Assembly: GCA_011772475.1 (NCBI GenBank)
Contig: WVZK01000134.1
Location: forward strand, 70,793-134,792
Direction of reading: 5' to 3'
Source: Candidatus Aminicenantes bacterium
Lineage (GTDB): Bacteria > Acidobacteriota > Aminicenantia > Aminicenantales > Aminicenantaceae
Length of the DNA: 64,000 nt
Shown in pieces: positions 1,600 to 59,151 of the stretch. The notes under the pieces were generated by a model. It ran no database searches, was not told the DNA's origin, and saw only the letters and a program-made list of their open reading frames with translations. The position numbers and the translations under genes are program-made. Within the stretch, counting starts at the first letter, position 1, and the number at the start of each line of letters is the position of its first letter.

Positions 1600-1652
1600 A
1601 ATAAAATTATTCGACTCTTCAAGCGAAAGCTAATCAATTTAGCTCAGTAATC

Positions 1653-2507: not shown

Positions 2508-3469
2508 AGTTTCCAGATGAAGGGCTTTTTATCAGTTAAAACCTTGCCCTGTTTCAGACTTTCGACCAAATAGAGAGGAAGAGCAAAGTAGCTCTGGTGA
2601 AAGCCAGGATGATAATATTTTAACTTCTTTACCGCACGCTGGTGCATTCTTTGAGCTATCTTTTTCTCATCCATGTCAAGAGGCTCCTTTGTCTTTGAAG
2701 CCAGGACAAAGCCCCAGGGCATGCTGAACGATAGAACAAAGGTCCAGTATGGCCGAACTATTGGAAAAACTTTTTCTAGCGTCTTCACCAAAGAGCAGAA
2801 AAATTGATTATAAGAAGGATCAGCGCTCCCTGCCTGAAGAACGAACAAGCCACCTTCCTTTAGGGCATCAAAGTTTTTCGAAAAAAATTCTTCGGTAAAA
2901 AGATAAACAGATGGCCCTTGCTTTATGGGCTCAGTCAAATCAGAAATAATGATGTCAAATCTCTCTTTTGTTTTTTCAATAAACTGGCGGGCATCTTCAA
3001 AGATGAGATCAGTTTTTGAGTTTGAAAACGCGCCCTCAGACCATTCTGGTAAATATTTCTGGCAAAGTTCCACCAGCTCTCTGTCGATATCCACCATTAT
3101 CACCTTTTCTACCGTATTGTGCCTAAGAACTTCCCTTATGGTAGCACCCTCTCCACCCCCTATCACCAGCACTCCTCGAGGGGAAGGATGAGTGATGAGG
3201 GCTGGATGGACCAAGGATTCATGGTAGATATATTCGTCTATTTGTGCCGATTGAATCTTTTTATCCAGAAAAAGAACCTTGCCAAGAAACTTGTTGTAAA
3301 AACACTGGACAAACTGATATTTTGTCTTCCCTTGATAATAGAATTTTTCGACTTTTAATCGTCTGCCGAATGATTCTGTTAACGGCTCAAAAAAATAAGA
3401 TCCTTCGCCTGCCATGGCAAAGATTATAGCAACTAAAAAATAAAGAGTAAACGCAATAAAAAACAGCAA
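2504..3469 (-). CDS. Second aminopropyltransferase (spermidine synthase family) with an N-terminal transmembrane helix
   Basis: VLVIGGGEGATIREVL, VDIDRELVELCQKYLPEW and ISDLTEP motifs. Hydrophobic N-terminus MLFFIAFTLYFLVAIIFAMA. Overlaps the upstream speE by 4 bp (ATGA). Confidence 0.75.
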   Translation of the reverse strand: MLFFIAFTLYFLVAIIFAMAGEGSYFFEPLTESFGRRLKVEKFYYQGKTKYQFVQCFYNKFLGKVLFLDKKIQSAQIDEYIYHESLVHPALITHPSPRGVLVIGGGEGATIREVLRHNTVEKVIMVDIDRELVELCQKYLPEWSEGAFSNSKTDLIFEDARQFIEKTKERFDIIISDLTEPIKQGPSVYLFTEEFFSKNFDALKEGGLFVLQAGSADPSYNQFFCSLVKTLEKVFPIVRPYWTFVLSFSMPWGFVLASKTKEPLDMDEKKIAQRMHQRAVKKLKYYHPGFHQSYFALPLYLVESLKQGKVLTDKKPFIWKL

Positions 3470-3536
3470 ACGGCTAAAAAAGATAGACCTGAAATTGGTT
3501 TTTTGATATAGTCTAAAAACTTAAAGGAGGTATTGA

Positions 3537-4739
3537 ATGTATGGCAAGATAAAGGAAGATTTGACAAAAGAAATTCAATCTATTCACGACGCAGGCCTCT
3601 ATAAATCGGAAAGAATCATAATGACTCCTCAGGGAGCAGAGATCGAAGTTAAAGGCGGTAAAGAAGTCCTGAATTTCTGCGCCAATAACTATTTGGGCCT
3701 ATCGAGCCACCCCAAAGTCATCGAGGCAGCCCATAAGACTCTTGATGAATGGGGTTACGGCATGAGCTCAGTTCGTTTTATCTGCGGGACTCAAGACATT
3801 CATAAGATTTTAGAGCAGAAGATATCTGCGTTTCTCCAGACAGATGATACCATCCTCTATGCTGCCTGTTTTGACGCCAACGGAGGAGCCTTTGAACCTC
3901 TTATAGGAGCAGAAGACGCCATAATAACCGATCAGCTTAACCATGCATCTATTATTGATGGCATCCGCCTCTGTAAAGCCCAAAGACTCATCTATAAGCA
4001 TGCTGACATGGCCGACCTTGAAGAGAAACTAAAGGAAACTCAGGGAGCCCGTTACAGGATGATAGCCACTGACGGTGTGTTTTCCATGGATGGCGATATT
4101 GCCAAGCTTGATGCGATCTGTGAGCTGGCAGATAAATACGATGCCATGGTCATGATTGACGACGCTCATTCAACAGGATTTATGGGCAAAAAAGGAAGAG
4201 GAACTCCTGAATATAGAGGGGTGATGGGCAGAATAGACATCATCACAGGGACTCTTGGAAAAGCCCTCGGAGGTGCCTCAGGCGGATTTATTTCCGGAAG
4301 AAAAGAGCTAATAGAACTTTACAGACAGCGCTCAAGGCCCTATCTTTTTAGCAATACTTTAGCCCCTGCTGTTGTTGGTGCATCTATTGCCGTCTTTAAT
4401 CTTCTCTCTGAAACAACCGAACTAAGGGATAAGCTGGAAGAAAACACAAAGTACTTCCGGGAAAAAATGACAGAAGCCGGATTTGATATAACACCCGGAG
4501 CCCATCCTATTGTTCCTATAATGCTCGGTAAATTTGAGAATGATGCCAAGCTTTCTCAAGATATGGCCCATGATCTCCTTGAAGAGGGAATCTATGTCAT
4601 AGGATTCTACTATCCGGTGGTCCCCAGAGGCCAAGCCAGGATAAGAGTTCAGCTCTCGGCAGCTCATGAAAGACATCACCTGGATAAAGCCATAGAAGCT
4701 TTCACCAAAGTCGGAAAGAAATATAACGTTATTCCCTAG
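3537..4739 (+). CDS. kbl: 2-amino-3-ketobutyrate CoA ligase (glycine C-acetyltransferase), a PLP-dependent alpha-oxoamine synthase
   Basis: [14 protein letters not shown] and the PLP-lysine region [17 protein letters not shown] upstream. About 400 aa, typical of Kbl. Confidence 0.85.
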
Positions 4740-4836: not shown

Positions 4837-4940
4837 TTGGGTCTTATTCTCTTTTTTTAGGCAAAAAACAAAACCTGACTCCAACAAAATTTTTTAAAAG
4901 TAGCCTGTCCCCTTTTTTGTCCCTTTTTTTGCCGTTTTTA

Positions 4941-14454: not shown

Positions 14455-15369
14455 TTATGTTTCTGCTTCTTGCAGGACGTTGTAGGCAAGCCTGAGGGCG
14501 CGAAGTCCTTCTTCGCCGCTCACTTTTCCCTCCTTCCCATCCCCGATGCATCTGAAAAAATTCTTGAGTTCTTTTTTAAGAGGCTCTTCTTTCTCTATCT
14601 TCAGGCTTTTAATATCAGTCTGTCTCCCGTTTAAAGGGAAAATTTTAACTTCCTGATCAATATAATCTATCGAATAACAAGACGTTGGCTCGAATATCCT
14701 CAGCTTTCTAACCTTTCCCTGGTGAACACGGCTGGCTGTAAGGGTAGCCACACAGCCCGAGTTAAACTCTAACCTCGCATTGGCAATATCAATTTTTTCT
14801 GAAAGGACATGTATTCCTGATGACCTGATAGATTTCACATCATCCTTAATCAAGGCCAAAATGATATCCAAATCATGAATCATAAGGTCGAGCACGACAT
14901 CAATATCCAAAGATCGAGCCGAGAAAGATCCCAATCTCTGAACTTCTATAAACCTTGGCTCAGAGATAACGTTTTCCAAAGCTTCTACAGCAGGGTTGAA
15001 TCGCTCCAAATGACCAACTTGAAGGATCGCCCCGCTCTTATCGGCCTTGGCTACTAACTTCTCTGCTTGTTCCACTGTCTCTGTTATGGGCTTTTCAACC
15101 AGAACAGACTTCCCCTTGCTCAATAATTTCATAGCGATAGAAAAATGCTCTGATGTTGGGGTGGCCACAATGGCTGCATCAATCTCATCCAGCATGTTTT
15201 CATAATTCTGATAGTACTGGACTCTATGACGATTTCCAATCTCAACTGCTTTCTTAAAATCAATATCCACAACTCCTTTGAGCTCAGCTTCTTCCAGATA
15301 GGATAAAATCCTAGCATGCTGGGTTCCCAAATATCCTACTCCGATTATTCCTACTCTTACTTTATCCAT
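14455..15369 (-). CDS. Gfo/Idh/MocA-family NAD(P)-dependent oxidoreductase in the lipid A cluster; possibly a GnnA-like UDP-GlcNAc 3-dehydrogenase
   Basis: N-terminal Rossmann motif VRVGIIGVGYLGTQHARIL and TPTSEHFSIAMKLLSKGKSVLVEKP. The start is taken at internal Met47 (GGAG RBS, avoids overlap with lpxI), although the ORF extends to 15507. Confidence 0.7.
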   Translation of the reverse strand: MDKVRVGIIGVGYLGTQHARILSYLEEAELKGVVDIDFKKAVEIGNRHRVQYYQNYENMLDEIDAAIVATPTSEHFSIAMKLLSKGKSVLVEKPITETVEQAEKLVAKADKSGAILQVGHLERFNPAVEALENVISEPRFIEVQRLGSFSARSLDIDVVLDLMIHDLDIILALIKDDVKSIRSSGIHVLSEKIDIANARLEFNSGCVATLTASRVHQGKVRKLRIFEPTSCYSIDYIDQEVKIFPLNGRQTDIKSLKIEKEEPLKKELKNFFRCIGDGKEGKVSGEEGLRALRLAYNVLQEAET

Positions 15370-15410
15370 CGAACTTTCTCCAGAAAATGCTCTAAATGCT
15401 TCTTCTATTC

Positions 15411-16220
15411 TTACCTCTTCTTTGCTACTATTGAAATTCTTTGGGCGTCTGCCAATGAGATAGCCTCCTCTTTTTGAAAAAAAGGTATGCTTTGAGCTTC
15501 GATACAAAGAACTCTGCTTCTCGCCTCGATAAGACTCTTTACAGTATTTAGCCCCACGGCCGGCAAATCCACTCTTGGATCTTGAAAAGATCGGCTCACT
15601 TTTACTACGACTGTCCCCTCTCCCGCCAGCCTTCCCCCTCTTCTTATTGCCTCGTCAGTCCCCTCCATTCCTTCCATGGCCACAACAGCCTTATTCTTGA
15701 CAATCACAGTCTGTCCTATATCCAAGTCAGCAATATTTTTGGCAATTCTTAGGCCAAATTCTATATCCTCTTCCGTATCTGGGGAAGGCTTTGTTTTTGT
15801 CAGGACACCCTCCTGGCAAAAAGAAGAAGCGATGAATGATGTCGGGTCCATTATTTGGATTCCTTCTTTAGCCATAAAATCAATAATTGTCTTTAAAACT
15901 GCAGTAGGACCTCGATCTTTACTTTGAGCCAAAAGGCGCCGAGAATCCTCATTTAATTTTTCTTCAGCAAAGATTTTCCGGGGATCTACCTTTCCGGCGA
16001 ACACTGCCTCTTTAACTCCGTTTTTTTTGAAAAAAGATACAAGGCCTAAAATATCACCAACATCAACCCACTCAAATATATCAACCTTATTCCTAAGGTC
16101 AGTTTCGGCTTCTTGCTTAATACCAGCGACTAAACAAGAGTAGCCCATTTTCTGAGCCTCTGCAAGTAAAAAAAACGGAAATTCTCCTGAGCCTGCGATT
16201 ATTCCGATTCTGGGTCCCAT
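15411..16220 (-). CDS. lpxI: UDP-2,3-diacylglucosamine hydrolase LpxI (DUF1009 family)
   Basis: IGIIAGSGEFP N-terminus and LDIGQTVIVKNKAVVAMEGMEGTDEAIRRG, with a C-terminal VDLPAVG region like Caulobacter LpxI. Lies directly downstream of lpxA. Confidence 0.65.
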   Translation of the reverse strand: MGPRIGIIAGSGEFPFFLLAEAQKMGYSCLVAGIKQEAETDLRNKVDIFEWVDVGDILGLVSFFKKNGVKEAVFAGKVDPRKIFAEEKLNEDSRRLLAQSKDRGPTAVLKTIIDFMAKEGIQIMDPTSFIASSFCQEGVLTKTKPSPDTEEDIEFGLRIAKNIADLDIGQTVIVKNKAVVAMEGMEGTDEAIRRGGRLAGEGTVVVKVSRSFQDPRVDLPAVGLNTVKSLIEARSRVLCIEAQSIPFFQKEEAISLADAQRISIVAKKR

Positions 16221-17023
16221 TTTTCAGCTGTCTTTTTTACGATTCCTCTTTCGGAGGACTGGATGAAGTTAAGAATCTCATCTCTGTCTTCCCCTGGAGG
16301 GAATTTTTCATTGATTTTAGCTGCGGCTTGAGTTGTGTTCAAGTCAGAATAAAAGAAAATTTTGAAAATTTCCTTAATTACTTTTATCCTCTCTTTGGAA
16401 AAGCCTCTCCGCCGCAACCCGATAGCATTTAACCCTAAAAGGATATTGGGGCGACTTCCGGCTACTTTTGAGAACGGGAAAACATCCTGAGTGATTACGG
16501 TATAACCACCTACAAAGGCATGTTTTCCAACCCGACAGAATTGATGAACACCGCTGAATGCTCCTACTGTAGAAAAATCATGGACAGTGACATGTCCTGC
16601 GAGCGTAGCCGCGTTTATAAAGATGGTTTCATTCCCGACAAAACAGTCATGTCCTACATGAGAGTAAGCCATGAAATAATTATCATTCCCGATAACAGTT
16701 TTCCCTCCGCCCTTAGCCGTTCCCCTGTTAACAGTCATGAATTCTCTAAAAATATTTCTATCCCCGATCTTAACCAGTGTATCTTCCCCTTTATAAGTTA
16801 CGTCTTGAGGTTCTGTTCCTATGGACGAATATGGAGAAAACCGGCAGTTTTTTCCTATTTCTGTCTGACCATCAATGAAAACATTCGCCTCTATTTTAGT
16901 ATTTTCATGGATGCTGACTTTTTCCCCTATAAATGAATATGGCCCTACCCAGACTCCTGAATCCAACCGGGCTTTAGGATGGACTGTGGCAGTGGAATGA
17001 ACAAAAATATCATTCTTTTTCAT
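16199..17023 (-). CDS. lpxA: UDP-N-acetylglucosamine O-acyltransferase
   Basis: Left-handed beta-helix hexapeptide repeats throughout, with an LpxA-like C-terminal helical domain. Confidence 0.85.
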   Translation of the reverse strand: MKKNDIFVHSTATVHPKARLDSGVWVGPYSFIGEKVSIHENTKIEANVFIDGQTEIGKNCRFSPYSSIGTEPQDVTYKGEDTLVKIGDRNIFREFMTVNRGTAKGGGKTVIGNDNYFMAYSHVGHDCFVGNETIFINAATLAGHVTVHDFSTVGAFSGVHQFCRVGKHAFVGGYTVITQDVFPFSKVAGSRPNILLGLNAIGLRRRGFSKERIKVIKEIFKIFFYSDLNTTQAAAKINEKFPPGEDRDEILNFIQSSERGIVKKTAEKWDPESE

Positions 17024-17492
17024 TCAATTCCTCAAGATTTGTAAGCGTAGCCATAGCCTCGCTTTCGGCAACAGCTTCTCCATCTACAAACGCTTTCCCA
17101 ACAATATGGCAGAATTTTGATTTGAGCCTTAGGATCTCCACCTCCAACTTCAGTTGATCACCAGGAACAACCGGCCTTCTGAATTTTGCTTTATCAATCT
17201 TAGTTAAAAGCATAAGAATTTTCTCAGGATCTGGAATGGAATGATACAGAAGAATGCCTCCTGCCTGGGCTAAGGCTTCGACAATTAAAACGCCAGGCAT
17301 TACCTTTATGTGAGGAAAATGACCCTGGAAAAATGGTTCATTAGAGGTAACGTTCTTGATGGCAGTAATTGACTTCCCCTTGTCGAGCTTTAATACTCTA
17401 TCCACTAATAGAAAGGGATAGCGATGGGGAAGGATCTTGAGGATTTTCTCGATAGTGAGCAAGTCTTTATTTTTTTGTGGCCTTTGAGGCAT
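17010..17492 (-). CDS. fabZ: 3-hydroxyacyl-ACP dehydratase FabZ; the start is taken at the internal Met, as the longer ORF overlaps skp
   Basis: LPHRYPFLLVDRVL and FFQGHFPHIKVMPGVLIVEALAQ hot-dog dehydratase motifs. Confidence 0.85.
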   Translation of the reverse strand: MPQRPQKNKDLLTIEKILKILPHRYPFLLVDRVLKLDKGKSITAIKNVTSNEPFFQGHFPHIKVMPGVLIVEALAQAGGILLYHSIPDPEKILMLLTKIDKAKFRRPVVPGDQLKLEVEILRLKSKFCHIVGKAFVDGEAVAESEAMATLTNLEELNEKE

Positions 17493-18003
17493 CGTATCTT
17501 CTGATGACTTCTTCGGTGAGATCGATTGTCGGATTGATATAGACAGCCCCACTATTCGCCAGGTCAAAAATTATATCCAGGTTTCTTTCTTTCCCCAATC
17601 CTTCGATAATCGGAATTACCTCATCCTGGACTTTGGTGAACAGCCTGAACCTGAGCTCCTGTAATTCTCTTAAGGAATCTTCTGCAAACCGTTTCCTTTC
17701 CGTCCGCTTTCTTTCCAACTCAGAAGTTAGCTGAAGGATAGATTCCTGCGTGAGTGTAAGCCGCTGGGTATTTAGCTTCGTCTCTAACTCGCGGATTTTC
17801 TCATCCATCGTAGAGATTTTAGACGAATTGCTTTTGTCTTTGTCTTGCAGCTGGGCCATTACCGCTTTTCCTTCGTTAGATTTTGAGATTACTTCATTTG
17901 AGTTGACGACACCGATCTTAACTGCTTCCTGAGCTAAGCTTATAAAGGCCAGAAATATAACTAGTAGAGCGAGTAAAGCAATTTTGCTACTGGTTCTCCA
18001 CAT
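17467..18003 (-). CDS. skp: Periplasmic chaperone Skp/OmpH
   Basis: Signal peptide and a coiled-coil-rich 178-aa protein located between bamA and fabZ, the canonical position. Confidence 0.65.
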   Translation of the reverse strand: MWRTSSKIALLALLVIFLAFISLAQEAVKIGVVNSNEVISKSNEGKAVMAQLQDKDKSNSSKISTMDEKIRELETKLNTQRLTLTQESILQLTSELERKRTERKRFAEDSLRELQELRFRLFTKVQDEVIPIIEGLGKERNLDIIFDLANSGAVYINPTIDLTEEVIRRYDASKATKK

Positions 18004-18045
18004 ATCTTTTGCCTCCTTAATAATATGAAATGCGCTCTTTATCGC

Positions 18046-20316
18046 CTAAAAAGTGGTTCCAATCGCAAAACGAAATGCGAAATTGGAATCATCAGCATGT
18101 ATCTTTCGGTTATTATAAGCAAAAATTAGCCTGAAAGGAACTCTTAGGGCAGGAACAAATATCCTCACCTCCAGACCTGTCGAGGAATACAAATTGCTTA
18201 AATTAATTTTCTGATCTCGAGCGAAAGCATTCCCCATATCATAAAAGAAAATAGCATATAGGGGGCCGCCGACTGGAATTATATATTCTGCGTTAAAAAC
18301 AAAAGATTTCTCGCCGCCTATATTCTGGTCTCCCCTGATAGAATAAATTTCGTAGCCTCTTATAGACCTTTCTCCTCCAAGATAGAATTTTTCCCAGATA
18401 GGAACGCCTGAGTCTCCTAAAACCTTTATAAACTGATACTCTACGTGGAATCCCACAACATGGTTCAGGACTAATGGATGGAAAAAACTCCACTCAAAGC
18501 GGGGCTTGATAAAGCTCATATCTCCGCCTAAAAAACCACCTGAGAACTTGCTTGAAACCATATACAAAGAACCTCTTGTTGGAGTCAAGGGGCTATTTAC
18601 TGTAGAACGATATACCATAGGAGTTATACTGCTTATGCCGTAACCTCCCCGGAAATCGTAGTAATAGCTGCCTTCTTCGGCATTAATATCGATGTATTCA
18701 TAGGCATAAGTAAGACTTGATCTCAAATATCCTTTGACCCTTCCTCCTACCGTAAGATTAGCTCCTTTTGCTTTTTGATCGAACAGAAAGGGATATATTA
18801 TATAACGATTATACACATTAAATCCCAAACTCACCGGATAATCAAGAAAATAGGGCTCAGAAAAGCCAAACATATAGTTTTTAATTCGCTTTCCATGTTG
18901 AACCATAAGTTCTAATTTTTCTCCAGCGCCTAAGAAATTTACCGTGGAGTAGCTTAGGGCGATAAAAGTTCCTTCATAACCACTGTAGCCAGCCGAAAAC
19001 TGGATGTTGTTCCTTTGAAGTTCTTTAACATTCATGACAACATCCATTTTATTGGGATCTTTTGGATCAGGCCTTATTTCAGGCTCCCCGACAGGCTCCA
19101 CCAGTCCAAGCTGGCTCATCCTTAAAATGCTGTCTTTGAACAAAGCTAAACTAAATCTGTCTCCTTCTCTTAGGAGCATTTCGCGCCTGATAACTTTGTC
19201 TTTGGTGAAGGTATTGCCTTTGAATTCAAGCCTGCCTAAATAAACCACATCCCCTTCAATTATATTGAATGTCACGTTTACACGTTTTCTCTTGGGCTCC
19301 AGTTTTTCTACAGGATATACTGCGGAACGAATATAGCCGAGGTTTCTGTAAATCTCTCCTATCTCTTCAATACTTTTTTCTCTTATTTTGGTGCTATAAA
19401 CATCGCCTTCTTTGAATTTAATGAGCCTGCGTAAGCCTTTAGTTGAAAGAATCTCATTCCCCTCGATCTTAACCTCTCCTACAGTATAACGATAGCCAGG
19501 ATTGACTGGAATAATGATCTTCTTCATCTTCTGTTTTTTGAACAAAACTGTCCTTTTTGTGATTTCCTCAATCCTGGGTTCGCCAACTGTAACTTCCATG
19601 TATCCGTATTCACGGTACTTCTCTTTTATACTTTCCAGATCTTCACTAAGCTTGTTCTGCTTAAAGACATCCTTTCCTGTTATCCAGGGAATAATTCCGT
19701 GCTTCTTATTCTGCTTCATTGCTCCTCTAACAACACTCTTTAGTAACTTTGTGCTTCCTTCGAATTCGACCTCGCCTACTCGAACTTTTGGCCCTTCGCT
19801 GATATCAAACACGACCTCTAACTCGTTCTTTCCTTTTTTGTCTACTTTGACCTTAACCTTGCCAGAAGTAAGGCCCTTTTCGAGGAGCAAATCTTCGATC
19901 GTCTCCTGGATTCTCTTAATTTTGAACTCGTTATAATAAGAATAAGGCAGGATGTATTCATCATTTTCCTTCAGTTTGTTGGTGATATCATTCTCCTTCA
20001 GTTTTTTTCCCGTTTTATAGATGATATTCTTGATTACTGGATTCTCCTCTACGATGATCTTTACTATCTTGCCTCTTACGCCATCTTCTTTTTCTATTCT
20101 GATATTGGAGAAAAATCCTGTCGACCATAAAACTCTAAAATCTCTTCTCAACAACTCCTCGCTGTAGTAGTCTCCTTCTCTTGAAGAAAGATAATAAAGA
20201 ACCGTATCCCGAGTGACGCGCTCGTTGCCGATAATTTCAATCTTCTCTAGCGTCTCCTGTCCGAATAGATAGGGCACAATGCACAAAACGACAAAACATA
20301 ATAGGATTCTTTTCAT
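18046..20316 (-). CDS. bamA: Outer membrane protein assembly factor BamA (POTRA repeats plus C-terminal beta-barrel); the start is at the Met with a GGAAAGAG RBS
   Basis: Signal peptide MKRILLCFVVLCIVPYLFG, repeated POTRA-like modules, and a C-terminal barrel ending in an aromatic residue (F). Confidence 0.85.
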   Translation of the reverse strand: MKRILLCFVVLCIVPYLFGQETLEKIEIIGNERVTRDTVLYYLSSREGDYYSEELLRRDFRVLWSTGFFSNIRIEKEDGVRGKIVKIIVEENPVIKNIIYKTGKKLKENDITNKLKENDEYILPYSYYNEFKIKRIQETIEDLLLEKGLTSGKVKVKVDKKGKNELEVVFDISEGPKVRVGEVEFEGSTKLLKSVVRGAMKQNKKHGIIPWITGKDVFKQNKLSEDLESIKEKYREYGYMEVTVGEPRIEEITKRTVLFKKQKMKKIIIPVNPGYRYTVGEVKIEGNEILSTKGLRRLIKFKEGDVYSTKIREKSIEEIGEIYRNLGYIRSAVYPVEKLEPKRKRVNVTFNIIEGDVVYLGRLEFKGNTFTKDKVIRREMLLREGDRFSLALFKDSILRMSQLGLVEPVGEPEIRPDPKDPNKMDVVMNVKELQRNNIQFSAGYSGYEGTFIALSYSTVNFLGAGEKLELMVQHGKRIKNYMFGFSEPYFLDYPVSLGFNVYNRYIIYPFLFDQKAKGANLTVGGRVKGYLRSSLTYAYEYIDINAEEGSYYYDFRGGYGISSITPMVYRSTVNSPLTPTRGSLYMVSSKFSGGFLGGDMSFIKPRFEWSFFHPLVLNHVVGFHVEYQFIKVLGDSGVPIWEKFYLGGERSIRGYEIYSIRGDQNIGGEKSFVFNAEYIIPVGGPLYAIFFYDMGNAFARDQKINLSNLYSSTGLEVRIFVPALRVPFRLIFAYNNRKIHADDSNFAFRFAIGTTF

Positions 20317-20618
20317 TTCTCTTTCCTTATAACATATTATTCTTTTTATTTCAACGATATCCGTGGGCTCGTTGATTCGGCCCAAAGGCTGATCCGCGAT
20401 CCTTCAAATCATCAAATTCTGTTTATTTCTTAGGGATTGCAATACCAAGGAATCTTGTTCTAAATATCTAGGATACCCGATATGCAATCCAGGCACATTG
20501 ACTGAATAAACGGAAAAGGCCGACCTGTTTAATGCCGGCGTCCGATACTCTTCCATTGGCTTTTATTATTTTATTCTTTACAAACTTCAACCTTCTCATT
20601 GCTACATTAATAATAACT

Positions 20619-29734: not shown

Positions 29735-29836
29735 AGGTGGGTTTGATAAATCAAACCCCTACATTGATTATAAATCATTGATTGTATTTTAAAAGGTGGA
29801 TTTAATAAATTAAACCCCTACGATAAATCAAGCGCC
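29735..29836. repeat. Hairpin repeat family 1 copies (GGTGGGTTTGATAAATCAAACCCCTAC plus variant GGTGGATTTAATAAATTAAACCCCTAC) in a tandem-gene intergenic region
   Basis: Palindromic arms GGGTTTGAT/ATCAAACCC, with a second divergent copy 50 bp away. Confidence 0.6.
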
Positions 29837-33166: not shown

Positions 33167-33364
33167 CGTAGGATTTGATTTATCAAACCCACCTATGATT
33201 GATTTATTTGTAGGGGTTTGATTTATCAAACCTACCTATGATTGATTTATTTGTAGGGGTTTGATTTATCAAACCTACCGTTTTATTCGGAAATTTGGGA
33301 AGAGGGGCTTGATGAATCAAGCCCCTACAATGAATCAAGCCCCTACGGTGAATCAAGCCCACCC
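33167..33364. repeat. Tandem array of hairpin repeat family 1: two full 44-bp units (33193-33236, 33237-33279) plus a partial, then three GAATCAAGCCCCTAC-type units
   Basis: TATGATTGATTTATTTGTAGGGGTTTGATTTATCAAACCTACC repeated with period 44, followed by GAGGGGCTTGATGAATCAAGCCCCTACAATGAATCAAGCCCCTACGGTGAATCAAGCCC. Confidence 0.7.
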
Positions 33365-51127: not shown

Positions 51128-53281
51128 TTAAAAGGTGAACTTGTAAACACCGATATTCCCGTGGCGGTCTTTGACCCTGACGGTAAGGAGATTGTCAAAT
51201 CTTGGAGGTAAGGTCAAAGTCAAGCTAAAGTTCTCCCATTTTGAGTCACAAATTCCATCCACAGGAAAAATGCTTTGCCACTCGTCAGGCCTGATAAGGT
51301 ATTTGACTTCTGTGATGTACGACAGTGAGTCCTCAGCAGAAAAAGTTACTTTAATGTTATTCTTTTCTATCTCAGCTTTGAAATTTTTGATTAGGGGAAG
51401 AGAGTTATCGATTATAAAGGGACTGCTCGTTCTATCTGACTTCAGCTCCGTCCCCATAGGATTAGAAGGAATATCAGAAACCACAAGCTTCAGAAAATAA
51501 ACCCCATCAGGATATGAGAGTGTATCAAAGGCATAGATCGCATCTGTCCATTTCTCGTTTAAAACTCTCCATTGACTCTCATCTTCTCCTTTAATGTAGC
51601 AGGAGAAAAGGAGAGCATCTCCATTCTCATCTTCCGCTTCCCATATAATTGTCTGGTATCCCTTTCTTTCAGCTTTCTTTGCAACAAGTAAGGATTTTTC
51701 TTTATCTTTGCTAACAGCCCGCTCTGGGACCTTGACATCTGCGCCCCATATAATCTCTTCCTGTTCTGGCGGTTTAAGATAAACTTCGTTGGGAGGAAGA
51801 ATTTCTAGCTTTCTGATTGCAGGGGCAACATTTGCTTGAAGATAGAAAAGAGAAACTTTTTGAAGAAGAGGAGATCGCTCACCAGATTGAGTTTTAAACA
51901 TGACCTTAAACTGGACGTATCTAGCCTTGGGATTTAAGACCTGCTCTCCTTGCTTTTTTTGATATGGCGGAGACCAATTGTTCCAAGTCTCGTTGGGGTT
52001 GCTTGAATTTCCGCTACGCGTTTGAAACTGCAGAGTCGCTCCAGAAGGGATTGTGGCTTCCCATTCTATTCTCCCCCATGACGAAATTGTTCCCGTATCT
52101 GTAACTTGACTTAGATACTCCCCACTAAATCTCTGGTCAGGAAAAAAGATGCTTAAATCGGGGGGATTATTAGCAATAAAATAAGTTTGTGAATCATACG
52201 GAAGGAGGAGATAAACAAGTTCCGATTCTTTCTGGACAACAAGAGAAGTCTTTTCATCCTTATCGACAGAATAGATCCTTCCTTTATCTCCGGTACCAAA
52301 AATGAGTTTTCCCTCTCTTTCACTCCAGAGCAGGCTGTAAATCAACTCATCGCTGGAATGCCAAAGTCTTTTAGCTACTCCCTGTTTATCTATCTTATAA
52401 AGGGCACTTGGTTGCTCTCGTACTAAAGAGAGAACCTGCTTGGTGTCAGGTGTGGAAGGCGACACAGCAACAGTAATAGCTGTATCTCCTTTTAGGGAAA
52501 TTGGCGTTTCTTCTTTTATTGGCTTGATAACAGTCCCACTGGCTGCAGCATAAATATTCCCCTCCCTGTCGAGAGCGATGCTCTTTATCTCCTCATACGA
52601 GGATTCAAACAGAATGGAAGCTTTCTTTGCTTTGGTAATTCGGTAAAGAAGACCCTTCCCACCGCTTCCAGCGAAAAGGTCTCCATTGGTGTCTCTTTCG
52701 ATGCAAAGAATATGGTTTTCCTCTGCTTTAAGGATTAGCTTTCCTTCTCCCTCGCTGTTTATCTCGTAAATACCTCCATTCTCACCAACTGCAGCAAGTA
52801 GCACGCCTTTGTCTACAAACAATAGATCCCAGATATATTTCTCGCGCGGGTTGAAAAAAATATCTCCTTTGCCCTTATCGGTAATTTTCCAAATCTTCCC
52901 GTTGGGCGATGTCCCTGCATAAAGATCTCCTTTTCTGTCCCGGGCAAGACAGTAGACATCCATCTCCGGCACTTGGAAATATATTTCTGGTTCCTCTCCT
53001 TTTCTGATTCTGTATATTTTTCCTCCGTGACCTGTTCCAAGGTATAATGTTCCATCTGGAGTGATAAGGAGGGATAGATAGAATTCCTCTTCAGGCCCAT
53101 TAATTTTTTCCTCTTTAGGAGAGAGAGAAAGTATGCCATCATAAGATACTGAGATCCCATCGAACTTGCCTTTCAAAAAGTCATCCTTACTTCGTACTTC
53201 CCATTTTTTTGGGACTACTCCTTGAAGAGCCTGAACCAAAAAGACAAGAATAACGAACACAACAACCAAAAGTCTTCTCAT
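51128..53281 (-). CDS. Secreted beta-propeller repeat protein with a C-terminal Ig-like/beta-sandwich region
   Basis: Signal peptide. Many roughly 40-aa repeats with G..G.IY.I-type signatures (GKIYRIRKGE, GKIWKITDKG, GGIYEINSEG, GLLYRITKAK). No catalytic motifs. Confidence 0.45.
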   Translation of the reverse strand: MRRLLVVVFVILVFLVQALQGVVPKKWEVRSKDDFLKGKFDGISVSYDGILSLSPKEEKINGPEEEFYLSLLITPDGTLYLGTGHGGKIYRIRKGEEPEIYFQVPEMDVYCLARDRKGDLYAGTSPNGKIWKITDKGKGDIFFNPREKYIWDLLFVDKGVLLAAVGENGGIYEINSEGEGKLILKAEENHILCIERDTNGDLFAGSGGKGLLYRITKAKKASILFESSYEEIKSIALDREGNIYAAASGTVIKPIKEETPISLKGDTAITVAVSPSTPDTKQVLSLVREQPSALYKIDKQGVAKRLWHSSDELIYSLLWSEREGKLIFGTGDKGRIYSVDKDEKTSLVVQKESELVYLLLPYDSQTYFIANNPPDLSIFFPDQRFSGEYLSQVTDTGTISSWGRIEWEATIPSGATLQFQTRSGNSSNPNETWNNWSPPYQKKQGEQVLNPKARYVQFKVMFKTQSGERSPLLQKVSLFYLQANVAPAIRKLEILPPNEVYLKPPEQEEIIWGADVKVPERAVSKDKEKSLLVAKKAERKGYQTIIWEAEDENGDALLFSCYIKGEDESQWRVLNEKWTDAIYAFDTLSYPDGVYFLKLVVSDIPSNPMGTELKSDRTSSPFIIDNSLPLIKNFKAEIEKNNIKVTFSAEDSLSYITEVKYLIRPDEWQSIFPVDGICDSKWENFSLTLTLPPRFDNLLTVRVKDRHGNIGVYKFTF

Positions 53282-53293
53282 TCCCTTTCTCTC

Positions 53294-55120
53294 CTATCTC
53301 TTTATTTTAATCGGAATCATGACAGCTCCTTTGAAAACGTAAGGAAGAGGCAACTGATATTCGCTTAGAGTGGATTTATTAAGTTCGGTAGGGGAAGAAG
53401 CTGCTGCCCGAGGAGAAGAAAACATGGATTTCATCGTCGGGGGTAAATTCGGCATTTCTTCGCCTTTCAGAAAAATGCCGGGCTTAGAAGCGATTATTTT
53501 AAAATAAATGCGGTTATTCTTCCTGAGATTATTTAATACTCTTATCAATTGGTTCAAACTTCGGGGAATAAAGGTCCCTAGTTTATATTGACTCATCTCT
53601 ACTTGAGCCATCGATGCCGCATCTCCGATAACAAGCTGAAATTCAGAACTCGATGGGAGCTGGGGGGCAAAAATTCCCACCTCCTGGAGCATGGTTGTTC
53701 CTCTGAAAGTGCGGTGATATACCTTTATTCTTATCCTCTCACCGGGCGAGACCTCGTATTTATCAAGCCAAACTTTTTCTAGGTACGAGAATTTGGCCTC
53801 TTCAGAAGTATGAACACTCAGGTCTATGCGATGGATGCCTAATTCTGTGAATTCATTATTGATCAAGAAATAAACAACTGCAGCAATCAGGTTCGAGAGC
53901 CTCGTTCCAGAAGTATTAAAACTCCCGGAAAAAAGATCCTCAAGATGAACGCTCATCCCATTTTCCAGGTAAACATCACACCTGAGCTCAAGAGAAAGAT
54001 CTCCAAGAGCTCTCTCTTCAAATGACAAGATGCTCGCCAGCGAAAGATTTACAAGAGCTGGAGTCAAAATTTTATCAGTGACTACTTCTATTTTGAAATT
54101 CTTAATATTGCCCTCTGCATCCGTCATCTGGACATTGACGGGAACGAGTTTGGGTACTTTCCCTATCTTTCCGAACACCCCGGGAATCCGGTCTTGAACA
54201 AAGCTCCCTAAAAGGGCGTCTGTGGAAGATATCTTAAAAGAAGTGGAGAGCCTTGGAACAACAGTTATAACTCTGGCTTTGCTCATGACATAATCAACCG
54301 GGCCCAAATTATATAAAGAATGACCAAAGGCAAAGACCTTATTGCCATCTACGTGGGTTACAGTCCCGACCGCAGACAGGTCGATGTCTCCCCTTACCAG
54401 TTGAACAGCAACAGGATCCCCCTCATGAAGAGTAAGATCGGGAGAGGAAATTCTTTGAAGTGATTGTCCTGAAGGACCTCCTCTAACAGGATAAAAACCC
54501 AGATTAGAAAAAAACATTTTGGCTTTTTCAAACGCGTTTGAGGAAAAGCCGCTAAACACAAGCGGAATACCCAAAGGAGCTAATGTTTGCCCTTCAGAAA
54601 TGAAAGAAGACCTGGGAGTTAGGAATTCCTTGTTTATTTCAAAAAGCTCTTCCAAACTCAGGTTCTTCTTGAAGGGGATTAGAGGAGAATAGGAAGATTT
54701 CGCAGTTTCCTCTTTCTCAATAGAGAGCATTTCTTCAATTGGAGTTATCCCGGCGATTGCTTCTTTGGCGAAATCTCCAATACTGTAGGCAACTGCTCCG
54801 ATAAGTTTCCCTCCCACATAGACCGGGCTTCCACTCATCCCCTGGATGACACCGGCCTTATCAAATATTTCCCCCTTTAGCTTGACCAAGATGATATTTC
54901 TTTTTGGGGCAATATTATATAAAACGTCCAGAATTTCGACGTCAAATTCCTCGATTTTATTCTCCTCAAAAACAGTCTTCCCCTTGCCTTTCATGCCTGC
55001 TTTGATCTGTTCCAAAGGAAGCGTAGAAACAGAACCTTCAACAGTCGAAAAGCAGAAGCAGATTATGAATAAAACCGAGAATATTCGTCCATACTTTGCT
55101 ATCATTTTATTATCATCCAC
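53294..55120 (-). CDS. Secreted protein with an N-terminal SpoIVB-like S55 serine peptidase domain
   Basis: GMSGSPVYVGGKLIGAV, which is GxSGSP, the SpoIVB/S55 catalytic serine context. Signal peptide. A long C-terminal region is unassigned. Confidence 0.5.
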   Translation of the reverse strand: MDDNKMIAKYGRIFSVLFIICFCFSTVEGSVSTLPLEQIKAGMKGKGKTVFEENKIEEFDVEILDVLYNIAPKRNIILVKLKGEIFDKAGVIQGMSGSPVYVGGKLIGAVAYSIGDFAKEAIAGITPIEEMLSIEKEETAKSSYSPLIPFKKNLSLEELFEINKEFLTPRSSFISEGQTLAPLGIPLVFSGFSSNAFEKAKMFFSNLGFYPVRGGPSGQSLQRISSPDLTLHEGDPVAVQLVRGDIDLSAVGTVTHVDGNKVFAFGHSLYNLGPVDYVMSKARVITVVPRLSTSFKISSTDALLGSFVQDRIPGVFGKIGKVPKLVPVNVQMTDAEGNIKNFKIEVVTDKILTPALVNLSLASILSFEERALGDLSLELRCDVYLENGMSVHLEDLFSGSFNTSGTRLSNLIAAVVYFLINNEFTELGIHRIDLSVHTSEEAKFSYLEKVWLDKYEVSPGERIRIKVYHRTFRGTTMLQEVGIFAPQLPSSSEFQLVIGDAASMAQVEMSQYKLGTFIPRSLNQLIRVLNNLRKNNRIYFKIIASKPGIFLKGEEMPNLPPTMKSMFSSPRAAASSPTELNKSTLSEYQLPLPYVFKGAVMIPIKIKR

Positions 55121-55178
55121 AACTGATAAATTGAGATAGAAATTCTAAAAGACGACACGGTCGATTTCTCCAATCTTT

Positions 55179-56363
55179 TTATTTTATTATTCCCAGTTTC
55201 TTACCGCTCTTCTCGAAGCTTGCAAGCACAGTATTTAGTTCCTCATCGGTATGTGTGGCAGAATAGCTCGTTCTAATGAGGGCTTGATCCTTGGGTACAG
55301 CAGGATAAATCACAGGATTTGCAAAAATGCCATCCTCTCTGAGCAATCTCCACAGCATGAAAGCCCTCTCATCATTCCCGATGATGGCCGGGATGATTGG
55401 AGTTTCTGTTGGCCCTGTGTTGAAGCCCATGGCTTGGAATCCTGATTTCATTTTTTTTGTGATACCCCATAATCTTTCTCTTCTTTCAGGTTCAGTTTGG
55501 ATGATATCGACCGTTGCCAGAGCGGTGGCAACTGAAGCAGGGGTGATGCTTGCGCTAAAAATCAGGGACCGAGCAAAATGTTTGATATAAGAGATAACTT
55601 TAGCCTCTCCAGCTACAAATCCTCCCAAAGAAGCTACAGATTTACTGAATGTGCCCATTACTATATCGACGTCGTCCTCGACTCCAAAATGTTCACAGGT
55701 CCCTCTCCCGTTATTTCCCATGACACCTATCCCATGAGCATCGTCGACCATGACCTTAGCGTTATATTTCCTGGAGAGCTCTACAACTTTAGGTAAATTT
55801 GCTAGATCTCCTTCCATGCTGAAGACTCCATCCACTATAACCAGCTTCCCTGCATCCTTTCCCATGGAAGAAAGGACCTTCTCTAAATCATCCATGTCAT
55901 TATGGTTGAAGCGGTATGCTTTTCCGTAGCTAAGGCGGCAAGCATCAACTATGCTGCCATGAACCATCCTGTCTGTGATGACTGAATCTGCCTTGCCAAC
56001 GAGTGTAGGAATTATTCCTAGATTGGTCTGAAAACCTGTGCTGAAAGCAAGAGCTGCTTCTTTTTTCATAAATTCCGCTAATTTTTTTTCGAGTTCAATA
56101 TGAATATCCAGAGTGCCGTTTAAGAACCTCGAACCGCAGGTCGCAACGCCATATCTATCCACGGCCTCCTGAGCTGCCTTCATTACTTTGGGATGATTCA
56201 TCAGCCCTAGGTAATTATTAGACCCGACCATGATCATCTCTTTCCCATCAACTTTAACTTTATTACCTTTCACTTCTTGAATAGGCGTGAAATAGGGATA
56301 TATCCCCAGTGCTTTGGCCTCATCAGCACGTGTGAAGTTATAACACTTATCAAAAAGATCCAC
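55179..56363 (-). CDS. PLP-dependent alpha-oxoamine synthase, serine palmitoyltransferase-like (SPT/BioF/Kbl family)
   Basis: MVGSNNYLGLMNHPKV, PLP-lysine region GTFSKSVASLGG and DDAHGIGV. There is no bio operon context. Confidence 0.65.
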   Translation of the reverse strand: MDLFDKCYNFTRADEAKALGIYPYFTPIQEVKGNKVKVDGKEMIMVGSNNYLGLMNHPKVMKAAQEAVDRYGVATCGSRFLNGTLDIHIELEKKLAEFMKKEAALAFSTGFQTNLGIIPTLVGKADSVITDRMVHGSIVDACRLSYGKAYRFNHNDMDDLEKVLSSMGKDAGKLVIVDGVFSMEGDLANLPKVVELSRKYNAKVMVDDAHGIGVMGNNGRGTCEHFGVEDDVDIVMGTFSKSVASLGGFVAGEAKVISYIKHFARSLIFSASITPASVATALATVDIIQTEPERRERLWGITKKMKSGFQAMGFNTGPTETPIIPAIIGNDERAFMLWRLLREDGIFANPVIYPAVPKDQALIRTSYSATHTDEELNTVLASFEKSGKKLGIIK

Positions 56364-56479
56364 CCTCTCCTCCTTTTTAAAAGTCTCTCCTTATCATAGA
56401 AAATATCTCCACTAATTCTTCACAGCCCTAAATTGGCTAAGGTTTGACCATGGTAGGCAATTTTCATACAATCTAAGCA

Positions 56480-57451
56480 ATGAAAGCTCTTCTCACCGGA
56501 GGAACCGGCTTTATCGGAAGCCATCTCGCAGAATTTCTGTTGGATAAAGGTGCCGAAGTATTTGCACTTGTCCGAGATCCTCACAACCTGAGATGGTTAA
56601 ATGGACTCAATATTCATCTCTTAAAAGGAAATCTTCTCTCTATTCCTGCTCTTCCTCCTGACTTCGACTATGTCTTTCATCTCGCCGGCTTAACCAAATC
56701 TTCCGATGTGGCTGATTATTATACAGTAAATCAACAAGGAACGGCAAGCCTTTTCAAGGCTCTACATGATCAAGAGATACTTCCCAAAAAAATTATCTGC
56801 CTCAGCAGCCTTGCAGCTGTTGGGCCTTCCTCGGATGGAAAGCCAGTCCAGGAAAGCGACGTACCTCATCCGATCACACCTTACGGTAAAAGCAAACTAA
56901 TGGGCGAAAACGAAGCTCTAAAATTCAAGGATGTCTATCCGATAATCATTATTAGAGCTCCAGGAGTTATTGGCCCCAGGGATAAGGATTTCCTTAATTA
57001 TTTCAAATGGATAAAAAAAGGGGCCCTTCCCACGATCGGTTCAAGGCAAAGATACATGAGTGTGTGTTATGTTAAAGATCTTATCAGAGCTTTATATGTT
57101 TGCTCTCAAAAAGAACTGAAAAGCGGAGAAATCTTCAATATCGGCGACCCGAATCCCTGCAGTTATGAAGAGTTCGGAGAATTTGCAGGACAAGCCCTTG
57201 GTAAAAAACTAAAAAAAGTTAAAATTCCGATTCCCGTAGGCTATCTTGTAGCTTTGATCGCTGATGTTGCAGGCAAGATAAGCAAGAAACCGGGCATTCT
57301 CAATCTACATAAATTCAAACAAATGAGGCAGAAGGGATGGGTCGCAGATATGAGAAAAGCAACAGAAGAATTATCCTTTCAACCTCGGTATTCTTTGCAG
57401 GAAGCTATTAAGGAAACGCTTGACTGGTACCTCATACACAACTGGCTGTAA
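56480..57451 (+). CDS. NAD-dependent epimerase/dehydratase-family (extended SDR) protein
   Basis: LLTGGTGFIGSHLAEFLL Rossmann motif and YGKSK (YxxxK) catalytic dyad. Confidence 0.75.
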   Translation: MKALLTGGTGFIGSHLAEFLLDKGAEVFALVRDPHNLRWLNGLNIHLLKGNLLSIPALPPDFDYVFHLAGLTKSSDVADYYTVNQQGTASLFKALHDQEILPKKIICLSSLAAVGPSSDGKPVQESDVPHPITPYGKSKLMGENEALKFKDVYPIIIIRAPGVIGPRDKDFLNYFKWIKKGALPTIGSRQRYMSVCYVKDLIRALYVCSQKELKSGEIFNIGDPNPCSYEEFGEFAGQALGKKLKKVKIPIPVGYLVALIADVAGKISKKPGILNLHKFKQMRQKGWVADMRKATEELSFQPRYSLQEAIKETLDWYLIHNWL

Positions 57452-57495
57452 ATTTAATTCATAACAAAGGGGACAGGCTACTTTTTTAAAAATGT

Positions 57496-57534
57496 GCGGG
57501 TTTCATAAATCAAACCCCTACGAAATTTATGAAA
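57496..57534. repeat. Hairpin repeat family 1 copy (GCGGGTTTCATAAATCAAACCCCTACGAAATTTATGAAA)
   Basis: GGGTTT(C/G)AT AA ATCAAACCCCTAC in a convergent intergenic region, flanked by GGGGACAGGC / GCCTGTCCCC inverted repeats. Confidence 0.55.
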
Positions 57535-57577
57535 AAGAAGCCTGTCCCCTTTTATTTTCTGGCTGTAAATTTAATTC

Positions 57578-58033
57578 TTATTTTATGTAGAAGGCAACAG
57601 AAAACTTTGATGTATACTTCAAGCACCATCCTTCTTCTTTTGAGTGGGCAAAATATTTGATTTTTCCCTCAAGAAGATGCTTGCCTTGCTTCGCCATCAA
57701 GCGGACTGTAAAAGGTATTTCAATGTCCTCACTCAGGTTTAGGTAATCTTTTCCGTTTTCTTCCAAGACATCTATCTTCAAATCATAGTCCGTAGATAAA
57801 CTTTTGGGAACAATAAGCTCCTCGCAAGGACTAAATTCGATGATAAAAGAAGGTTCAGGACTAATAAACATACCTTCTTCTAAACTAAGCTTCAGAACTA
57901 TCGTCCCTTTTTGACCCCTGGAAAGCCTTTTTGGATTTGAAGAAGCTTCAATCCTTAGAAGAGCTTCATCCTCAGCTACAGCGAAAAGAGAAAGACAAAG
58001 AATTAGAATACAAAGAAAAACATTCTTTCTCAA
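57578..58033 (-). CDS. Small secreted hypothetical protein
   Basis: Signal peptide MRKNVFLCILILCLSLFAVA. No recognisable motifs. Confidence 0.35.
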   Translation of the reverse strand: MRKNVFLCILILCLSLFAVAEDEALLRIEASSNPKRLSRGQKGTIVLKLSLEEGMFISPEPSFIIEFSPCEELIVPKSLSTDYDLKIDVLEENGKDYLNLSEDIEIPFTVRLMAKQGKHLLEGKIKYFAHSKEEGWCLKYTSKFSVAFYIK

Positions 58034-58146
58034 CTGAGTTCCTCCTGCCTTCTCCCGTAAAAAGCATATTACTCTCTCCCCTTTGCTGCGTCAAGGAAAT
58101 TATGCCTTTATTTTTCCCTGTCCATCTATTATAATTTATCGAAATT

Positions 58147-59151
58147 ATGATGAACACAAAATCATTCATAGCAGGAACAGGTCACTTTGTCCCCCCTAAA
58201 GTTATAACTAACTCCGACTTAGAGAAAAAGATGGACACCTCGGATGAGTGGATTCGCCAGAGGTCAGGGATAGTAGAAAGGCGTTATGTGGAACCTGGTG
58301 TTGGAAGTTCAGACTTAGCCTATGAAGCGGCCCTGCGAACTATTGATGACGCCAAAATCGACAAATCAGAAATAGACTTTATAATTGCCGCCACCCTTTC
58401 CCCAGATCATTACTTTCCTGGAATAGGCGTTATAGTCCAGGCTAAACTTGGGCTTTCTGGAATAGGAGCCCTCGATGTGAGAAATCAGTGCACAGGGTTT
58501 ATTTATGGACTTTCTGTGGCTGATCAGTACATCAAAACTCACAACTATAAGAAAATCCTGCTTGTTGCATCTGAAGTCCAATCATCAAACTTGGATTATT
58601 CTGATGAGGGGAGAGATATGGCTGTCCTTTTCGGAGATGGAGCTGCTGCTGTCATCCTTGAACCCAATGAGAAAAATGACGGTCGAGGCATCCTTTCTAC
58701 CCATCTTTTTTCAGATGGAAGGCATGTATCTGATTTATGGATGGAGAAACCAAGTCCTAAGGATAACCCCACTTTTGCCGAAGAATTCTTCAAAAACAAA
58801 AGATTCTTCCCTAAAATGGACGGAAGGAATGTTTTCAAAAACGCTTCAGAAAAAATGCCTGAAGCGGTAAGAATTGCTTTAAAACATAATGATCTCTCTA
58901 TTGAAGACGTTGACCATCTTATACCCCATCAAGCTAACGAACGAATCTCTCAAATGGTAGCCAGGAGTCTGAAAATTCCAGTTGAAAAAGTGATTAGAAA
59001 CATAGACCGCTTCGGAAACACGACAGCCGCCTCGATTCCTATTGCAATGGATGAAGCTCTGAAAGAAGGAATAATAAAAGAAGGCGATATTGTAGTCCTC
59101 ACAGCTTTCGGTTCTGGCTACACGTGGGGCTCGGCAGTAATCCAGTTCTAA
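58147..59151 (+). CDS. fabH: 3-oxoacyl-ACP synthase III
   Basis: FabH N-terminus (DEWIRQRSGIVERRY) with active-site Cys in NQCTGF and His/Asn in HQANERI and GNTTAAS. Confidence 0.85.
   Translation: MMNTKSFIAGTGHFVPPKVITNSDLEKKMDTSDEWIRQRSGIVERRYVEPGVGSSDLAYEAALRTIDDAKIDKSEIDFIIAATLSPDHYFPGIGVIVQAKLGLSGIGALDVRNQCTGFIYGLSVADQYIKTHNYKKILLVASEVQSSNLDYSDEGRDMAVLFGDGAAAVILEPNEKNDGRGILSTHLFSDGRHVSDLWMEKPSPKDNPTFAEEFFKNKRFFPKMDGRNVFKNASEKMPEAVRIALKHNDLSIEDVDHLIPHQANERISQMVARSLKIPVEKVIRNIDRFGNTTAASIPIAMDEALKEGIIKEGDIVVLTAFGSGYTWGSAVIQF

Follow-up and report, generated by a model that had tools for sequence, protein, structure and literature searches.

The stretch of DNA analyzed here (the window) comprises 64,000 nt of a metagenome-assembled genome (MAG) of Candidatus Aminicenantes, and all coordinates given below are positions within it. 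It contains a gene for a pyridoxal phosphate (PLP)-dependent alpha-oxoamine synthase (AOS), named spt here as a putative serine palmitoyltransferase (Spt) gene, which is divergent from a gene encoding an extended short-chain dehydrogenase/reductase (SDR), with 116 bp between both genes. An earlier reading of this DNA by a model that saw the letters only (the sequence-only reading) had proposed that these two genes, together with several neighbours, form a sphingolipid or aminolipid locus. The open reading frames (ORFs) that it named are all present where it had placed them, and the NCBI gene calls (JABAOF010000320.1, GCA_012974965.1) match the ORFs, the sole difference being five codons at the start of the S55-like gene that follows spt. 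The GC content is even across the region, which therefore shows no sign of recent transfer, and no Rfam RNA family was found across the whole window. The two genes and the element between them are the following:

55179-56363, minus strand: spt, alpha-oxoamine synthase of 394 amino acids, GTG start, Pfam Aminotran_1_2
56444-56472, plus strand: promoter-like element, TTGACC-N17-TACAAT, ending 7 nt 5' of the SDR ATG
56480-57451, plus strand: CerR-like extended SDR of 323 amino acids, Pfam Epimerase/3Beta_HSD

The public annotations of the spt gene are a generic PLP enzyme (NCBI) and BioF (JGI). According to NCBIfam, the best model for the AOS is NF047600 (SerpalmtaseCFB) with 547.5 bits, followed by TIGR01825 (430 bits), Kbl (411 bits) and BioF (397 bits). 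The cut-offs of the other models were all missed (411 < 460 and 341 < 493 for Kbl, 397 < 426 for BioF), and the alphaproteobacterial-type Spt model NF047603 gave 344.7 bits with a cut-off of 670. The best score also lies under the NF047600 equivalog cut-off of 640 bits; Spt homologues that are found in clusters with SDR and GNAT-like genes likewise score under 640 bits (551.5 in the locus L024 and 495.7 in L039), so that this cut-off appears to be tuned to Bacteroidota. Among solved structures, the top match is the SPT of Sphingobacterium multivorum (PDB 3a2b/8guh, 448 bits), and lower scores were obtained with the SPT of Sphingomonas paucimobilis (312 bits), Kbl (290 bits), two cysteate acyltransferases (284 and 270 bits) and BioF (219 bits).

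The AOS aligns with the S. multivorum SPT over 381 residues with 50% identity and no gaps, and this gap-free alignment places its catalytic set at Lys241 (Schiff-base lysine), His135, Asp207, His210 and Arg364. Fifteen of the 16 active-site residues of the S. multivorum enzyme, taken from PMC10196870, are identical; the single change is Met271 to Ile, at a residue that touches the substrate through its main chain, and the residues contacting serine are all conserved. Two positions discriminate within the AOS family. Ser78, the equivalent of S. multivorum Ser81, is Val in Kbl, and Ala271 occupies the site of Lys281 of SulA, the essential active-site lysine of the sulfonolipid enzymes (PMC9304779). 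All 45 Spt-clade sequences have Ala at this position, where Asn or Thr is found in Kbl, HemA and BioF-like sequences. A few Spt-clade sequences do not have the equivalents of Ser81 and Asn52, and their source is probably Heimdallarchaeota.

In a tree generated by the neighbor-joining method (100 bootstraps, with outgroups labelled HemA and BioF-like), the AOS falls in a Spt supergroup with both crystallized Spts (99% bootstrap), apart from HemA, the BioF-like sequences and a separate Kbl clade (100%) which includes the second AOS of the window; branching within the Spt clade is poorly resolved (58%). Model ranking, structures, residues and tree thus agree with the sequence-only reading, which had placed the enzyme nearer to Spt than to BioF and had called for such a phylogeny. 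The AOS is a Bacteroidota-type serine palmitoyltransferase homologue and a probable Spt, predicted to be soluble, and condensation of serine to 3-ketodihydrosphingosine is its predicted activity. Three contigs of Heimdallarchaeota (L040, L041 and L042) encode an AOS with 42-43% identity to the Spt of the window, which also falls inside the Spt supergroup (99% in relation to Kbl); its NCBIfam scores are ambiguous (TIGR01825 420, SerpalmtaseCFB 407), and neither an SDR nor a GNAT gene is adjacent to it.

Other members of the AOS family were considered. As the sequence-only reading had noted, a genuine Kbl is encoded elsewhere in the window (3537-4739; 673 bits, cut-off 493), near an SDR-type L-threonine dehydrogenase, Tdh (619-1599; 443 bits to PDB 7cgv), so the Kbl/Tdh role is already filled at 619-4739; given this and its scores under the Kbl cut-offs, the AOS was rejected as the Kbl of such a pair. 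Two tandem spermidine-synthase-like genes lie on the opposite strand between these Kbl and Tdh genes. BioF was rejected on its score, the discriminating residues and the absence of bioA, bioB and bioD from the window, in keeping with the earlier remark that no biotin genes flank the AOS. SulA/CapB was rejected because of Ala271 at the position of the SulA lysine and the lower structural scores (284 and 270 against 448 bits to Spt).

The same data bear on a more general alternative, in which the AOS would use a substrate other than serine: cysteate, as in SulA/CapB with a CapC-like reductase; glycine or alanine, which would make it a second Kbl or a synthase of deoxy-bases; or the substrate of a BioF-type enzyme. 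The score under the Spt equivalog cut-off fits this alternative, and so do the acceptance of Ala, Gly and homoserine by Spt enzymes with low efficiency (PMC10196870) and the existence of a different pair of an AOS with an extended SDR, Kbl with Tdh. However, the full conservation of the serine contacts, the Ala in place of the essential SulA lysine (PMC9304779), the cysteate acyltransferase structures matching no better than Kbl, the genuine Kbl and SDR-type Tdh elsewhere, the BioF score under its cut-off and the lack of bio genes nearby make it very unlikely. Compared as systems, the sulfonolipid pathway (SulA/CapB and 3-ketocapnine reductase) shares with the locus an AOS condensation followed by a keto reduction but differs in Lys281, which is Ala here, and the AOS is no more similar to cysteate acyltransferases than to Kbl; the Kbl and SDR-type Tdh pair shares the combination of an AOS with an extended SDR, but the SDR beside spt is only weakly similar to Tdh (hhalign 1e-12).

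The product of the divergent gene shows the motifs of an extended SDR, with GGTGFIG at residues 7-13, Ser110/111, Tyr135 and Lys139. Its NCBIfam matches are full-length yet sub-threshold, with HpnA (103 bits) as the best, and OleD and SdmB; the GalE match is confined to the Rossmann half, and solved sugar epimerases reach 63 bits at most. A single-sequence AlphaFold model was unusable (pLDDT 34). As a proxy for the ceramide reductase gene cerR we used a Sphingomonas spt locus (L051), in which the gene was assigned to the cerR position by gene order: it shows an SDR gene (301 amino acids), an acyl carrier protein (ACP) gene and spt, which is the order cerR-acpR-spt of Caulobacter CC_1164 to CC_1162 (PMC11324152). 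The SDR of the window aligns with the Sphingomonas protein end to end, with 26% identity and an E value of 6e-22, and GxxGxxG, Ser, Tyr135 and Lys139 are in register, whereas the Tdh-type SDR of the window shows no significant alignment with it. In addition, an hhalign profile built from 28 SDRs encoded beside spt gives an E value of 3e-41 with the Sphingomonas cerR-position SDR, compared to 1e-12 for the Tdh-type control SDR. These comparisons support its placement in the same subfamily as the cerR-position reductase of alphaproteobacteria, and agree with the earlier assignment of the gene to an SDR family that includes bacterial ceramide reductase. We propose that the enzyme uses NAD(P)H to reduce the 3-keto group, either of the long-chain base or of the N-acylated base.

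To compare neighbourhoods, one genome per species was taken (48 loci) and gene surroundings were analyzed by tblastn. Of the 16 Aminicenantes genome loci, 15 have the SDR gene beside spt, and the same holds for 12 of the 27 non-Aminicenantes loci. Eight of these 12 are divergent (L019-21, KSB1 L024, L026, Calditrichaceae L029, Planctomycetota L030 and L043) and four have both genes on the same strand, with the SDR gene upstream or downstream (L031, Acidobacteria L032, Lentisphaerae L036 and Myxococcota L039). That spt and the SDR gene are neighbours in several arrangements is an argument for their being linked in function, and agrees with the sequence-only reading as to the pairing. Several loci (L003, L006, L009, L015, L016 and L019-L021) share nearly the same Aminicenantes gene order, but their public records name them 'uncultured Eubacteriales' or 'uncultured Clostridia', which is probably a taxonomic mislabel. 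Furthermore, in the Cloacimonadota/Celaenobacter loci L022, L027, L028 and L045 a gene for a large patatin-POTRA-Omp85 (PlpD-like) protein adjoins spt.

Clustering of ORFs showed a GNAT-like protein of about 375 amino acids encoded directly after spt in 11 loci of at least eight lineages (L023-L026, L029-L033, L039 and L043). It shows weak Acetyltransf_1 matches, and has no NCBIfam model and no solved relative; the family has thousands of members, which NCBI labels as hypothetical or (GNAT superfamily) N-acetyltransferase. From its position and family it is presumably a candidate bacterial ceramide synthase (bCerS). In the locus studied here the site after spt is held instead by the genes for the S55-like protein and a beta-propeller protein. 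A profile of the GNAT-like family was also compared with a protein database, and none of its best 120 matches, from a family of thousands, is labelled Aminicenantes. The earlier suggestion to look near the locus for a bCerS, an ACP or an acyl-ACP synthetase gave nothing in the window, since family scans and NCBI gene calls found neither these nor biotin genes there.

Taking the enzyme placement and the linkage across phyla together, we propose that the core of this locus is a two-gene sphingoid-base unit, formed by Spt and a 3-keto reductase, with the remaining neighbours outside it; we give this reading a probability of about 0.6. Several observations weigh against it. Besides the sub-threshold score of the AOS, the top curated family of the SDR is HpnA, with a score far under its cut-off, and the SDR is just 26% identical to the alphaproteobacterial cerR-position gene product, so that, with a pairwise E value of 6e-22, it would probably not pass the 1e-30 threshold of PMC11334938, although a different reference set was used there. 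A hidden Markov model (HMM) of the GNAT-like family, run against six-frame translations, gave no match (E <= 1) in the window or in any Aminicenantes-type locus.

The other points on this side come from the Aminicenantes themselves. Fifteen Aminicenantes-type metagenome loci cover the region from the SDR gene to the S55-like gene: spt lies between both genes in ten, and in the other five (L055, L056, L058, L065 and L066) the SDR gene is directly divergent from the S55-like gene, with 60-200 bp between them and neither spt nor a remnant of it. Two of the five (L065 and L066) are near-identical, and the spt-less loci are scattered in the S55 tree, whose internal support is weak. Their SDR is intact, with 46-58% identity and no extra divergence, which means that the SDR does not need an adjacent spt. 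Furthermore, in the Aminicenantes contig L010 a spt gene with 80% identity is found in another context and without the SDR gene, among TetR, patatin, radical SAM/SPASM and F420-ligase-like genes; it is followed by a TetR gene and, 0.5 kb downstream, by a fragment of a KAS III paralogue. The patatin homologue near this relocated spt is a stand-alone one. The spt-less loci and L010 indicate that spt was lost from the site, or moved off it, more than once, and L010 shows that relocation has to be considered as well as loss. In the Aminicenantes class, it seems that spt can move or be dispensed with.

Transcription signals are also relevant to the independence of the SDR gene. In every Aminicenantes-type locus compared (L003-L018 and L052-L066), down to 45% SDR identity, the SDR start shows the arrangement TTGAC[CG]-N17/18-TAnAAT, 7-9 nt and ATG, and it has no Shine-Dalgarno sequence. 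A conserved promoter so close to the ATG, together with the lack of a Shine-Dalgarno sequence, suggests that the SDR mRNA is leaderless and made from its own promoter. A promoter and terminator scan of the window gave counts no higher than in shuffles, hence the evidence for the SDR promoter is its conservation across loci. The spt gene is preceded by an AGGAGG Shine-Dalgarno sequence.

These data could be explained if Spt is what it appears to be and the SDR is functionally unrelated to it, a lipid or sugar reductase of the HpnA/3beta-HSD type whose position beside spt in Aminicenantes would reflect nothing more than gene order passed down in the lineage. The main support for this explanation is the intact and equally conserved SDR (46-58% identity) of the five loci without spt; its conserved promoter and monocistronic gene, the best curated match to HpnA, the 26% identity to the cerR-position gene product and the presence of spt without the SDR gene in L010 also fit. 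However, inherited order hardly explains spt-SDR adjacency in at least six other phyla and in three arrangements, the SDR profile matches the cerR-position SDR 29 orders of magnitude better than a control extended SDR, and the spt-less sites are compatible with spt relocation of the kind seen in L010. We consider an unrelated SDR rather improbable, and retain Spt and the reductase as one unit.

The genes and features surrounding the pair are the following:

51128-53281, minus strand: beta-propeller protein of 717 amino acids, hydrophobic signal-peptide-like N-terminus, Reg_prop repeats
53294-55120, minus strand: S55-like protein of 608 amino acids, hydrophobic signal-peptide-like N-terminus, partial Peptidase_S55
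57466-57552, no strand: long hairpin between the SDR and p151 genes, 28-nt arms, -42.8 kcal/mol
57578-58033, minus strand: p151, small protein of 151 amino acids with a hydrophobic N-terminus
58147-59151, plus strand: fabH (KAS III), 334 amino acids, NCBIfam score above cut-off

As the sequence-only reading had described, spt heads a three-gene array on the minus strand, in which spt, the S55-like gene and the propeller gene stand head to tail and are 58 and 12 bp apart. The gene for p151 converges with the SDR gene, and the hairpin between them (z = -6.5) is a probable bidirectional terminator. It is flanked by a 22-nt direct repeat (region 57442-57580), and parts of its sequence are also present between genes at three other places in the window (4896-4915, 29739-29762 and 33210-33275), which suggests a REP-like or terminator repeat family.

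FabH exceeds two NCBIfam cut-offs (371.8 > 249 and 366.3 > 292 bits), which is a statement of FabH family membership and not of a part in the sphingolipid unit, and p151 has no family match in Pfam or NCBIfam. Synteny of spt with the genes for FabH, p151, a DUF885 protein, S55 and the propeller is limited to Aminicenantes, and FabH, p151, S55 and propeller were found in none of the 27 non-Aminicenantes spt loci. All 15 Aminicenantes genome loci with this synteny keep the block from the propeller gene to fabH, as do 10 metagenome loci; however, the Aminicenantes synteny also takes in the housekeeping genes for EF-P, TatD and a polyprenyl synthase, so that conservation of the block is not specific to these genes. 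The association of FabH with spt is weak, and its earlier inclusion in a sphingolipid locus is not supported, as FabH accompanies spt in Aminicenantes only.

An alignment of the S55-like protein was used to search metagenomes, and distant homologues were found in 64 loci (L067-L131) with 31-37% identity. A propeller gene lies directly downstream of the S55 gene in at least 45 of the 64, and no match to spt or the SDR gene was found near S55 in these loci. Since both genes stand alone elsewhere, they are an independent two-gene module that happens to follow spt in this class, and the pair is unchanged where spt is missing. The S55-like gene is probably co-transcribed with spt here but outside the pathway, and the earlier placement of S55 and propeller in a sphingolipid locus is not supported. 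The S55-like protein has a Peptidase_S55/SpoIVB match, limited to residues 34-114 (41 bits, cut-off 305), and alignment to the SpoIVB structure 9lnf covers residues 34-111 only; a full domain in the SpoIVB order, His before Ser, was not found, and the Ser motif GMSGSPVY (94-101) precedes the His motif AFGH (264-267). This may point to an S55 protease domain that is permuted or split.

In a wider view of the kind that the sequence-only reading suggested, the whole block 51128-59151 would be one dedicated sphingolipid or aminolipid locus, with FabH as the source of the acyl chain and the two secreted proteins in charge of handling or exporting the lipid. Its retention in all 15 syntenic genome loci and in 10 metagenome loci, the operon-like spacing of spt, S55 and propeller, and the KAS III fragment 0.5 kb from the relocated spt of L010 speak for such a locus. 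It is largely refuted by the stand-alone S55 and propeller pairs in at least 45 of 64 distant loci, and the 0 of 27 count outside Aminicenantes, the unchanged S55 and propeller pair where spt is missing and the synteny with EF-P, TatD and polyprenyl synthase also stand against it; we regard it as highly improbable and limit the unit to Spt and the reductase.

In the proposed mechanism, L-serine would bind as an external aldimine on the PLP of Spt (at Lys241), and the enzyme would condense it with a long-chain acyl thioester, with loss of CO2, to give 3-ketodihydrosphingosine. The acyl donor would most likely be acyl-CoA or a general (bulk) acyl-ACP, as no acpR, aasR or dedicated ACP gene is present. 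The SDR, with NAD(P)H, would then reduce the 3-keto group to a 3-hydroxyl; its substrate could be either the free base or the base after N-acylation. The latter has been proposed for CerR in Caulobacter, although even there the order is debated (PMC11087976, PMC11324152). An N-acyltransferase for ceramide would lie outside this locus, elsewhere in the genome, or be absent; ceramide genes are dispersed in Bacteroidota and Cloacimonadota (PMC11334938). The data show the family placement, the conserved active-site residues and the linkage of spt with the SDR gene in several phyla; from these we infer the substrates, the order of steps and the lipid product.

Three known systems resemble the locus. 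The S. multivorum SPT is of similar length (about 395 amino acids), the equivalents of its Asn, Ser81, His138, Asp210, His213, Thr241, Lys244 and Ala274 are kept, and in both cases no dedicated ACP gene is beside spt; the differences are the phylum, the change of Met271 to Ile and the score of the window protein (547.5 < 640 bits), whose activity is a predicted one. The alphaproteobacterial cluster comprises Caulobacter CC_1162-1165 and CC_1154 (spt, acpR, cerR, aasR and bcerS), with its ceramide reductase CerR (CCNA_01222), and the Sphingomonas locus L051. As in the window, spt in this cluster adjoins the gene for an extended SDR, probably of one subfamily with that of the window, and the SDRs have GxxGxxG, Ser, Tyr and Lys in common; however, the window has no acpR, aasR or bcerS, its genes are divergent and not co-directional, and its Spt is of the Bacteroidota type. 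The clusters with SDR, spt and GNAT-like genes in MAGs of KSB1, Calditrichaceae, Planctomycetota, Acidobacteria and Myxococcota (L024, L029, L030, L032, L039 and L043) show 52-62% (Spt) and 27-42% (SDR) identity to the window, and most have divergent SDR and spt genes; they differ in the gene of about 375 codons for the GNAT-like protein after spt, where S55 and propeller are found here. What is unusual in Aminicenantes is that no ceramide synthase is adjacent and that spt was repeatedly lost or relocated with the reductase kept.

These peculiarities can be taken further. Aminicenantia could make long-chain-base lipids with a Spt and CerR-like pair and no bCerS homologue, spt being dispensable, relocatable and several times lost from its ancestral site; we put this forward tentatively, as quite unlikely. 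If true, the product would be free or otherwise modified sphingoid bases, or else an N-acyltransferase not homologous to bCerS would make ceramide, and co-transcription of spt with the secreted S55 and propeller proteins might reflect a class-specific envelope function. Elsewhere in the window, an envelope cluster (14455-20385) contains a UDP-GlcNAc 3-dehydrogenase-like gene (245 bits, cut-off 450) by lpxI, lpxA, fabZ, skp and bamA, which hints at lipid A of the GlcN3N type; the organism thus has lipopolysaccharide genes besides spt.

Ding et al. (PMC11334938) had already identified 1,271 MAGs, from 38 phyla, with predicted Spt-like proteins, which limits the novelty implied by the sequence-only reading. 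No paper was found in the literature that names Aminicenantes as sphingolipid producers or that joins Acidobacteriota with serine palmitoyltransferase. One of the loci compared (L007) is from a Black Sea Aminicenantes MAG, and the accessible part of the Black Sea paper supplements contains no mention of Aminicenantes or Acidobacteriota. The locus does not open a new kind of system; it adds a new, mis-annotated member to a known pathway. Aminicenantes are abundant uncultured bacteria of sediments and the subsurface, and a credible pair of Spt and reductase predicts that sphingoid-base lipids of anoxic sediments come in part from Aminicenantes, a point that matters for the interpretation of environmental sphingolipid and ceramide biomarkers. 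Furthermore, the lineages that have spt at this site, have none there or have it relocated, with the reductase kept, are a natural comparison set for the role of the reductase and for the completeness of ceramide synthesis.

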